DNA of 53,638 nt, the filler included, from Porpidia crustulata (taxonomy: Eukaryota): NCBI GenBank assembly GCA_964255105.1. It is 3 parts of 3 records of this genome, joined end to end, with 100 filler letters (N's around TTAATTAATTAA, not from the genome) between each part and the next. Parts side by side here need not be neighbours in the genome. Positions count along the whole stretch, not along the records: positions 35,893 to 53,638 come from CAXUWE010000206.1; 2 more parts are not named here. One strand, 5' to 3'. Position 1 is the first letter of the stretch; each line of letters starts with the position of its first letter. Made by a program: the position numbers and the translations under genes. Shown here piece after piece: positions 48,170 to 50,691 of the stretch. The notes below the pieces were generated by a model, which did no database searches, was not told the DNA's origin, and worked only from the letters and a program-made list of their open reading frames with translations.

Positions 48170-48883
48170 TCATTCCAATCTAGAATCTCTATTAGCCATG
48201 GGTTCACGGCTGGCAGTGAAGAAAACCTTATACCTTTCAATCAAGTGTACTCCAGACGCCGTGTCCACCACACTACTAACTTCGCCTGGCTTCAGCGAAA
48301 AGGCCATGTCCTCGAACTCTCTCTGCATGTCTCCCCTACCGAAAAACCCACTTTGAAGTCCAATTAGCCCCCTCGAAGCCACGGAACTTTTCACACTTAC
48401 AGATCGCCTCTCTTTCTTGCACTACTGCAATCGCTCTCCGTCACACTCAACTCCCCTAAGCTCGTCTCCCCGTCCCTTATCCTTTTCTCATGCCCCCTGA
48501 TAATCTCGATTGCATCTTCCTTCGTCCTCGTGATCTCTGCTTCCCGCCAACTGCTCGGTCTCCGACTGTCCTTGTGCTTCACTAGCAAATGTGCGGCTCG
48601 TATCTTACCCTCTTTGGCCTGCGAGCCATCGGGGCGGATAGCCGCCCCGCTGTGATGCTGAGCCATATAGGCTTTGAGCTTTTCGGTGTCGGTGTGAGAG
48701 GGCGGCTCCCATTTCGATTCCTTCGAAGCGCTATTGAAATAGTAAGGGAGGTTTTTGGAGTTGGAGTGGCGGACTTCCCAGCCAGCGGGGAGGCCGGATT
48801 CGGACTTGGGAGAGCTGTCAGCTTGGAGGGCACAGTACAGGGCTACTTGAGGATCCATGTCCAATCCTTTTCGAACCCACCAT
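48170..48883 (-). CDS. ESS1: Peptidyl-prolyl isomerase Ess1/Pin1 (WW + parvulin)
   Basis: GLPAGWEVRHSNSKNLPYYFN..SKWEPP, HLLVKHKDSRRPSSW, SDCSSARKRGDL|GFFGRGDMQREFE, SGVHLIER; introns 48805-48880, 48351-48400, 48180-48233. Confidence 0.96.
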
Positions 48884-49212
48884 GATAGCTGATTTTATAG
48901 AAGGGAAACTAGAGCGAACGGTTCTATTGGAGCATGCAGATATATAAGTTTGAGAAGCTGGTGATGAGGGGTTCAGTTTACGAGTATAAGGCTGTTGACG
49001 ATCGGCATGTCGGACACTGTGGTGGGGCAACAGCTTGGACTAAGCCAATACTGGACATTACAGCACTGGTAGGGCTGGCGGCAGTATGATCAATTACTAA
49101 CAACAGCAACTTGCAACTTCGACCACAACAACATCAGCTTCGCGAGTGTCCCATACACTGCGTATCCAAACTTTCATCAAAGCGATATCCACTCACGGAA
49201 CACGACAGAACA

Positions 49213-49935
49213 ATGTCCGTCTCACCAGCACCATCTGACGATCGGCAAACAAAAACCCAAGAACAAATTACATTTAGGTTCTGTCGAGAATGGTGAGTCA
49301 CCTTTGGTTGATCCCCGTACTTACACACAGCTGATAGTCATATAGTTCCAACATGCTTTACCCAAAGGAAGATCGAAACACCAGTAAACTCATGTTCGCC
49401 TGCCGAACGTGCCAGTTCAGCGAGGAAGCCCAATCCTCGTGTGTTTTCAGAAACAATCTTTACAACACCGTCGGAGAAACGGCAGGAGTCACGCAAGATG
49501 TTGGTTCGGATCCCACGGTTGGTTTACCCGACTTTTGTACTCTGTGCGGGCAAGAGGTGCTTTGTTTCTACTGTGGGATGGAGGAATGCAGTGGGCCTAC
49601 AGGGGTTGAGGAGCTTGATGATGATGATTTGGCCGAGGAGATGGTGGTTAATAGTGGTTACGAGAGCACGGGGACGGACCAGACTTCTGGTGGGGTCAAG
49701 TGTTCTTGAATCTTTTACTAATCTGGCTTCTTGTTCGCAGCTGCCAAGGTCGAATAAGCAGTGCCCAAACTGTCATGAGACCGAAGCGGTATTCTTCCAG
49801 TCGCAACAGCGGTCGGCAGAAACGGGAATGGTAAGAATTTGTTTGATATAGCCTTTCATGCTTGAACATTGCTAAGGTCGCCTTGTTCAGAAACTCTTCT
49901 ACGTTTGCTGCGGCTGCGGGAATATCTTCCAATAG
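49213..49935 (+). CDS. RPB9: RNA polymerase II subunit Rpb9
   Basis: [65 protein letters not shown]; introns 49293-49345, 49518-49740, 49831-49890. Confidence 0.96.
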
Positions 49936-50108
49936 GTGGTGTGGTTTCCTTGGAAGGACGACATATCAATAAGTGGGTTTGGCGTTCGGGATCATGATAC
50001 CACGGAAGGCGTTGGTGGAAAGCGAGTGGATATGTGGACATCACTCGCACCGTAGTAGATGCAATGGGTTCTCAGTGGAATTGAAAGACATTTGGAACTT
50101 GCAATTAT

Positions 50109-50691
50109 TCATACGTGCATCGATGCTAATGAAAGGATTTTCGACCAATGTTTGTCTCGAAGCTCCGACCCCACAACGCCTAGTTTCGTTATTAGCATAT
50201 TGCCCCATACAGTCTCTAGAGGAAACATTCAACCCAGGATTTTGATCCTCACCATTGATCCTCGTCCCCAACGGCTCCCCGTTCTTCCCGATCAAGGCAC
50301 AAGCATTATCGTCGAACCGGACCACCATTCCATCCTTCCTCTGTACCTTCTTGGCCGTTCGAACCACTATAGCATGCTTGACATCGCCTCTCCTCACTTT
50401 ACTGGCGGCCGCGGCGCTCATGGCTCCACCAGGGCCAGCATCGGCCTGTGTGCGCGCTTTCTGAACAACTACTACAATGCGGTCCCCTTGGATCTGTCAG
50501 TCCACCTATCTGTCTGTGGGGGTGAAGTAGAATCCACCGATCTTCGCATGCCGCTTCATTCGTAGATTCGCAACACATTCGACCATCGTGGCGCCGGAGT
50601 TGTCGATGCAATTTAGCATCGTCTTTTGTTTTTGGTTAGCCAGTATCTGGAAGAAACTACTTGATCTTTGCCGTACCTTAAGTTGTATCAT
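50109..50691 (-). CDS. MRPL38: Mitochondrial ribosomal protein uL14m
   Basis: [60 protein letters not shown]; introns 50623-50676, 50487-50537, 50180-50252. Confidence 0.94.

Follow-up and report, generated by a model that had tools for sequence, protein, structure and literature searches.

Intron 2 of the RPB9 gene of Porpidia crustulata continues the reading frame of exon 2 into a short cysteine module and an acidic tail, and comparison of related sequences, which come from six or more classes of Pezizomycotina, shows that the frame and motif are conserved and under selection at the protein level. The best explanation, at a probability of roughly three in four, is that intron 2 is a dual-use sequence, which would give canonical Rpb9 when spliced and, when retained, a selected alternative C-terminus on a variant Pol II subunit. 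The subunit and the mechanism of intron retention are known; the conserved domain and the isoform are new.

Rpb9 is a small, non-essential subunit of Pol II. In yeast Pol II structures its N-terminal zinc ribbon (Zn1) and linker hold it on the lobe and jaw. The TFIIS-like C-terminal ribbon (Zn2) is placed close to the funnel and jaw, and fidelity, the TFIIS response and contact with TFIIE are linked to it.

The RPB9 gene and the frame of its second intron

The window, i.e. the whole stretch of 53,638 nucleotides that was analysed, contains a four-exon RPB9 gene on the + strand at 49213-49935 (Table 1). The translation of exon 1 starts with MSVSPAPS and ends with ITFRFCRE. The exon 1/2 junction, ...CREC|SNMLY, is the same in annotated relatives, and intron 1 is skipped (49292->49347) in a contig from a sequencing run of a relative (X4). 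Compared with Pfam, exon 2 alone matches PF02150 (Zn_ribbon_RPB9, E 1.6e-07, 31.5 bits with a cut-off of 25.2) and exon 3 matches PF01096 (Zn_ribbon_TFIIS, E 1.3e-09, 38.2 bits with a cut-off of 21). Both ribbon families are present in the canonical isoform. The read-through ORF matches PF02150 only, PF01096 being absent from that isoform.

Table 1. Features of the RPB9 gene of P. crustulata, in positions of the window
Feature	Position	Strand	Description
RPB9 exon 1	49213..49292	+	start codon and first CxxC of N-terminal zinc ribbon; ends in phase 2
RPB9 intron 1	49293..49345	+	53 nt, GTGAGT..TAG
RPB9 exon 2	49346..49517	+	remainder of Zn1 and linker, last residues DPT
RPB9 intron 2	49518..49740	+	223 nt, donor GTTGGT, CAG acceptor; also alternative coding extension of exon 2
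5' splice site of intron 2, GTTGGT	49518..49523	+	Val-Gly if intron retained
Cysteine module C-T-L-C-G-x4-C-F-Y-C-G	49536..49577	+	inside intron 2
Acidic, probably disordered tail	49578..49706	+	with GVEELDDDD and NSGYES
TGA stop of intron 2 read-through frame	49707..49709	+	a short way upstream of branch site
Branch-site-like TACTAAT in intron 2	49716..49722	+	read from sequence
RPB9 exon 3	49741..49830	+	first half of TFIIS-like ribbon (Zn2)
RPB9 intron 3	49831..49890	+	60 nt
RPB9 exon 4	49891..49935	+	second CxxC of Zn2, stop; translation starts [10 protein letters not shown]

The first-pass annotation of this DNA had placed intron 2 exactly at DPT|LPR, at the end of the linker, and had described an in-frame extension of exon 2 by 63 codons. 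The coordinates, length and donor letters of the intron were exact on re-reading, its place in the protein agrees with the gene model and with the Pfam matches on the flanking exons, and the extension and its stop were recovered by translation. The 63 codons open with VGLPDF; [13 protein letters not shown], G and the acidic tail follow, up to the TGA. The CxxC-x5-CxxC module with acidic tail that had been noted in this frame is likewise present in the translation. In the P. crustulata clade the stop stands shortly before the branch site, and CACTAAT or TACTAAT occupies the equivalent place in two loci of relatives (L001 and L008).

Conservation and codon-level selection in relatives

A protein search with the read-through ORF as query yielded 830 relatives, and in 108 of the best 120, which were examined, C..C-x5-C..C follows directly after DPT-VG. 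Among them, intron-aware gene models of lichen fungi (Lobaria, Xylographa, Teloschistaceae and others) have intron 1 spliced and intron 2 read through; their C-terminus is an acidic tail, and they have no TFIIS ribbon. Many of the other entries are simple ORF calls made on genomic contigs, so that the proteins, taken alone, could be an artefact of ORF calling.

DNA loci were found by exon-2 peptide patterns only, in 128 relatives, of which the best 80 were kept, ranked by similarity to a query containing the intron ORF. Ten loci were dropped, either because the pattern for the end of exon 2 failed (L033, L045, L064, L067 and L069) or because exon 3 lay beyond the locus or the AG check failed (L018, L026, L068, L070 and L074). 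The resulting 71 models, i.e. 70 loci and the P. crustulata gene, represent 62 distinct introns. Canonical exon 3 (LPRSNK.CP.C...AVFFQSQQR) lies downstream in 62/62, and the mean column identity of exon 3 is 87% (29 orthologues); these loci are therefore the same gene and not a paralogue. By fungal standards intron 2 is long in every case, at 89-578 nt across the 62 and mostly 160-400. Its lengths fall into all three classes modulo 3, consistent with a genuine intron rather than an insert that keeps the frame.

The median open fraction of these introns is 0.69 in frame 0, against 0.36 and 0.23 in the other two frames. The in-frame core C..C-x5-C is found in 52 of the 62 distinct introns (from the best 80 of 128 loci), a proportion that is biased upward because the ranking query included the intron ORF. 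An open frame and conserved Cys spacing in orthologous introns were among the checks proposed at the outset; both are seen, in the 52 introns that keep the core and, for the full pattern, in the 108 proteins above. Among the most divergent sequences, of which 13 were compared, C, C-G, C and C never vary and the final G hardly does. Downstream of the cluster many lineages carry a second short motif, approximately CG-x-x-[TS]D-x-G-hydrophobic-hydrophobic-L-E-[VA]-[DE]-D, of which GVEELDDDD in P. crustulata is a weaker form. The tails of relatives have a median D+E content of 0.29, and the net charge is negative in 41/50.

An exon 1-2 junction is present in 17 loci. These were considered as possible cDNA, a reading that was rejected: the loci lie on genomic contigs and show loss of intron 1. 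L036 continues into intergenic DNA and, by eye, an apparent neighbouring gene on the opposite strand.

Carriers of the module are many in the Lecanoromycetes. In the Leotiomycetes they include Cadophora, Rhynchosporium, Lachnellula, Hymenoscyphus and Sclerotinia (SS1G_08937), as well as Botrytis cinerea B05.10, whose Bcrpb9 model (112 aa) is the read-through form. Sordariomycete carriers are Fusarium, Metarhizium, Claviceps, Cordyceps, Ophiocordyceps, Colletotrichum, Tolypocladium and Cladobotryum, and those of the Dothideomycetes are Venturia, Trichodelitschia, Lophium, Verruconis, Macrophomina, Acrodontium and Microthyrium. The Lichinomycetes are represented by Phylliscum and the Coniocybomycetes by Sclerophora. 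No named Eurotiomycete is among the carriers seen, which is not evidence of absence. In the loci and proteins compared, the module has been wholly or partly lost in several lineages. It is missing in Pseudogymnoascus and in Erysiphales, one CxxCG is left in the Lepraria-like loci L012, L024 and L029, and in L071, L073, L075 and L078 the frame meets a stop after 6 codons. The Leotiomycete module is reduced, with three Cys and Arg at the fourth position. All four Cys are found in P. crustulata and in 29/47 distinct cores; of the 18 remaining cores, 17 are from the Leotiomycete group, and 15 of those have the Arg.

The codons of conserved residues vary at synonymous positions. Three Cys are invariant in the 47 distinct cores, a count in which these same Cys also served as the selection filter for the set, and their TGT/TGC usage is 37/10, 39/8 and 29/18. 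The Gly after the second Cys, which lies outside the filter, is present in 46/47 cores and is encoded by GGT, GGC, GGG and GGA in 17, 14, 8 and 7 cases. For nine groups of related introns, substitutions were counted in nucleotide alignments that ignored the reading frame. Variable sites number 47 (8%), 43 (7%) and 105 (18%) at codon positions 1, 2 and 3, out of 582 each, and 130/650 (20%) in the part of the intron after the ORF stop. The pattern is clearest in group D (L049, L055, L062 and L063), with 4, 1 and 24 variable sites of 75 at the three positions and 55/142 after the stop. Indels within the ORF are multiples of three in 7/7 cases (15; 9, 3, 3, 6, 3, 3), and after the stop in 2/11.

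Nei-Gojobori dN/dS, calculated for the intron ORF minus its two donor codons, comes to 0.15, 0.29, 0.25, 0.06 and 0.27 in five groups, values that come from protein-guided alignments, which lower dN; exon 2 gives 0.00-0.06 for comparison. A sixth group (E) is a near-identical pair (dS 0.02) with dN/dS of 0.59 in the intron ORF and 0.95 in exon 2, the latter value being put down to a misaligned exon start. The dN/dS below 1 that had been set as a check at the outset is thus obtained, at 0.06-0.29 in five groups and less markedly in the near-identical pair. On these comparisons the intron 2 ORF is under purifying selection at the codon level. An antisense ORF (49524-49772, 82 aa) was considered as the cause of the pattern and rejected, since its third positions correspond to position 1 of the + strand, which has no excess of variation; the antisense ORF is a by-product.

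Transcripts and competing explanations

The donor of intron 2 has the form GT[TG]GGT in 48/62 distinct orthologous introns and is non-consensus; in intron 3 of these genes the donor is mostly GTAAG or GTGAG. The letters GTTGGT suggest a donor of weak strength, as had been proposed. Retention of the whole intron would be the simplest route to the alternative product. A listing of sequencing runs gave no RNA run for P. crustulata. Run X1 is near-identical DNA and probably the source, X2 and X3 give partial cover, and X4 contains short spliced contigs of relatives that skip intron 1. Apart from the probable source DNA, no contig from these runs spans the exon 2/intron 2 border. Two JGI proteins, P0153 and P0251, come from contigs of about 1.2-1.3 kb that are apparently metatranscriptomic, and have the same in-frame 5'UTR. 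In P0153 intron 2 is present as far as its stop codon. After CLLC, P0251 continues in the +2 frame of spliced exon 3+4; its contig is therefore a cDNA in which a cryptic donor inside the module was used. This pair, from organisms other than P. crustulata, gives a hint of retained-intron transcripts. With its stop 121 nt short of the exon 3/4 junction, the read-through mRNA may be prone to nonsense-mediated decay.

Three other explanations of these data can be weighed against dual use of the intron. The frame could have arisen by chance in a neutral intron and owe its look of a protein family to ORF callers that read through introns. Dinucleotide shuffles of intron 2 (n=20000) give a frame open for at least 63 codons in 539 cases (2.7%), plain ORF calls on genomic contigs are numerous among the database 'proteins' (P0004 is this gene's own), and protein P0046, such a plain ORF call, reads through intron 1 too. 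However, C..C-x5-C..C occurs within such an ORF in just 1/20000 of the shuffles. The open frame alone is unremarkable and the cysteine pattern is unusual, and the question is settled by the comparative data. The frame and motif are conserved across classes in which exon 2 is only about 50-60% identical, and codon use, codon-position bias, indels in threes and dN/dS already contradict a chance frame, which is left as an extremely improbable explanation. The remark in the first-pass annotation that such a cysteine pattern is unlikely for a neutral intron is upheld, both by the shuffles and by conservation and selection in relatives.

Alternatively, the module could be inserted between the linker and Zn2 by use of a distal in-frame 5' splice site. 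The remaining intron would then be short, beginning close to the ORF end, and the product would be a long Rpb9 containing three zinc modules. A candidate donor is GTCAAG at 49695, which is in phase 0 and from which a 46-nt intron would be removed, with ...SGG fused to LPRSNK, and models of Fusarium venenatum, Ophiocordyceps, Colletotrichum gloeosporioides and Rutstroemia are joined in that way. The closest relatives, however, lack GT at the same place (AGCAAG in L001-L007, AGAAAG in L008), intron lengths across loci leave 0, 1 or 2 when divided by three, and the distance from stop to acceptor varies from 0 to 278 nt. Four Fusarium models have four different joins, two of which delete the first CxxC of Zn2; these look like gene predictors forcing one frame. 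With the GT not conserved, the lengths varying modulo 3 and the annotated joins inconsistent, the distal donor was rejected and is regarded as very unlikely. The third explanation is retention with a regulatory role and no working peptide, i.e. autoregulation of RPB9 via decay-prone transcripts, the conserved stretch being an RNA or splicing-control element. The conserved non-consensus donor speaks for it, as do the stop upstream of a spliced junction, from which decay may be expected, and the length of the intron in L071, L073, L075 and L078, still 183-193 nt despite the early closure of the ORF. Such a role would not account for the rate at codon position 3, which is about that of the intron beyond the ORF (18% vs 20%) while positions 1 and 2 are 2.4-fold lower, or for the synonymous variation at Cys and Gly codons and the restriction of ORF indels to threes. 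Nor does intron 2 of P. crustulata have an unusual RNA fold (z = -1.5; 13/200 shuffles fold as well). Regulatory retention without a peptide is accordingly judged unlikely, and dual use of intron 2, with a selected product of the retained form, is the preferred reading.

The module, its proposed role and known systems

The 14-residue Cys cluster CxxCG-x4-CxxCG is probably a small putative zinc knuckle; in P. crustulata it has the four Cys, in two CxxC(G) knuckles, of a Cys4 arrangement. A profile of the module only, compared with 1.84 billion representatives, gives 62 matches at E <= 0.001. The RPB9 Zn1/linker is upstream in 54 of these (43 by pattern, 11 by eye), and the others are 7 short ORFs with the module alone and 1 unrelated zinc-finger protein. 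In Pfam the intron peptide has no family match, with none below E 0.01, and among 26 module members no family recurs in more than 3/26. A PDB sequence search with the module gave no match (best E 1.3), and the protein Atlas search returned RPB9 clusters in Ascomycota only, and no other family. An origin of the module as a duplicated exon 3 was rejected for want of support, at 5% probability in hhalign profile comparison. The module is thus a compact new domain without a Pfam family, found in this RPB9 intron only.

AlphaFold2 models were made of the full-length read-through protein of Lobaria immixta (136-row alignment) and of the P. crustulata intron peptide alone. The former has pLDDT of about 90 over Zn1, about 57 over the linker, 83 over residues 91-100 (most of the module) and about 50-60 over the tail. 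In the latter pLDDT is 73-77 over residues 1-20 and below 55 beyond. Confidence over the module is moderate, and both models fit a small ordered knuckle followed by a disordered acidic tail.

In the proposed mechanism, splicing from the non-consensus GTTGGT donor would produce canonical Rpb9, with Zn1, linker and TFIIS-like Zn2. Where intron 2 is left in the mRNA it would be translated as the Cys cluster and the acidic disordered tail, and translation would end at the stop shortly before the branch site. The product would retain the Pol II-anchoring Zn1 and linker and be without Zn2. Its likeliest role would be that of a variant Pol II subunit that alters the properties dependent on Zn2, e.g. 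fidelity, TFIIS response and TFIIE contact, and the acidic tail may possibly act near the DNA entry or TFIIS channel. The original proposal that retention swaps Zn2 for a Cys module is strongly supported in its evolutionary half, by conservation and selection. Its functional half is inferred, namely that the product is made through retention of the intron, that the module binds zinc, and that the isoform enters Pol II, affects transcription or acts in feedback. Filamentous ascomycetes might, more broadly, make two kinds of Pol II from one RPB9 gene, one standard and one with a new zinc knuckle and acidic tail in place of the TFIIS-like ribbon at the jaw and funnel, in a ratio set by a regulated weak donor, as a switch of fidelity, elongation or start site kept since the Leotiomyceta ancestor; this extension is tentative, and the odds are somewhat against it.

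Fungal alternative splicing reportedly creates alternative C-termini, as in the cryptic peroxisomal targeting of glycolytic enzymes that Freitag, Ast and Boelker are said to have described in 2012. The RPB9 case is similar in that a conserved short alternative C-terminus derives from sequence that is intronic in the main isoform. The peroxisomal case concerns a targeting signal, whereas in RPB9 a new Cys module would replace a folded domain of a polymerase subunit. Canonical Rpb9/POLR2I (PF02150 and PF01096) is a product of the same gene, and exons 1-2, i.e. Zn1 and the linker to DPT, are common to it and the alternative product. Unlike canonical Rpb9, the alternative product would have CxxCG-x4-CxxCG and an acidic tail in place of the TFIIS-type ribbon. 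There is also a likeness in idea to paralogous or variant TFIIS-like factors such as archaeal TFS4 (PMC5715097), namely that a variant TFIIS/Rpb9-type protein could alter or inhibit the polymerase and not support cleavage. TFS4 reportedly has a gene of its own and retains the ribbon fold, whereas the RPB9 variant would come from the same gene by way of an unspliced intron, with the ribbon replaced. In yeast the dosage of Rpb9 alters transcription fidelity (Carey 2015, eLife, PMC4868539).

In the open-access PMC and bioRxiv literature that was searched, no fungal RPB9 isoform was found, nor any sign of prior recognition of the conserved module. In databases the read-through proteins are filed as 'hypothetical protein' or 'RPB9'. 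If true, a second selected isoform would be a built-in, splicing-controlled route to a functionally different Pol II. The group concerned is very large and takes in lichens, plant pathogens and laboratory models. Mutations internal to the intron spare the canonical protein, so that the module is easy to test. Public RPB9 models are split among canonical, read-through and hybrid forms that differ from species to species, and acceptance of two real isoforms would resolve this split. Both forms stand in the public annotations of the same species in Rhynchosporium, Sclerotinia and Clarireedia ('variant 2' model).

Persistence and closure of intron 2

Among the related RPB9 loci (the best 80 of 128 relatives), intron 1 is missing from the genome in 17, i.e. 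L012, L013, L015, L024-L026, L028, L029, L036, L064, L067-L069, L074, L076, L077, and L079, several of which lie on contigs of 60-280 kb. The long intron 2 is kept in every complete locus of this set. In these loci the long intron 2 is retained in the genome though its short neighbour, intron 1, is gone. At four loci, L071, L073, L075, and L078, the intron-2 frame is shut after 6 codons, with a GTTCGT donor; the intron is still 183-193 nt in length and is similar among the four. Further into the intron there is a possible remnant, ...MLCGG.

Transcript-like proteins and gene models

The database protein P0251 (JGI, contig of 1219 nt) is a transcript-like ORF from which intron 2 has been removed using a cryptic donor within the module, after CLLC at the Gly codon GGT, leaving exons 3 and 4 frame-shifted. 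P0208 looks like a further mis-spliced form, in this case at intron 3. Public Fusarium RPB9 models P0277, P0282, P0302, and P0312 (209-232 aa) join the intron ORF to Zn2, the TFIIS-like C-terminal ribbon, at four different junctions, and in two of the four the first CxxC of Zn2 is deleted. These Fusarium fusion models are probably annotation errors, recurring in many records (one cluster alone has 43 members).

Cys module and acidic tail

In Leotiomycetes (loci L031-L061, proteins P0126-P0247) the module takes the form CLLCG-x4-C-EGR, comprising three Cys, with Arg at the position of the fourth Cys of other lineages. This three-Cys module would either bind zinc differently or function without zinc. 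Within the acidic tail, the window's NSGYES is replaced by DSGYES in the closest relatives; two Dothideomycete-like loci, L049 and L072, carry DSGYEG/DSGYQG upstream of the Cys module. The motif is similar to the DSGxxS phosphodegron consensus; a phosphodegron-like tail motif would fit a short-lived, regulated putative isoform.

Genes adjacent to RPB9

The Pol II CTD is a target of the Ess1/Pin1-like prolyl isomerase family, a member of which is encoded directly upstream of RPB9. The promoter region may be common to these two Pol II-related genes. At Leotiomycete locus L036 a gene seemingly similar, judged by eye only, to the Ribosomal_L14 neighbour occupies the same position.

Tail motif and genes flanking RPB9 in the window
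Feature	Position	Strand	Remark
WW domain + PPIC-type rotamase gene	48397-48894	-	directly upstream of RPB9, divergent; Ess1/Pin1-like prolyl isomerase
NSGYES	49650-49667	+	within acidic tail of intron-2 ORF
Ribosomal_L14 family protein gene	50041-50496	-	downstream neighbour of RPB9
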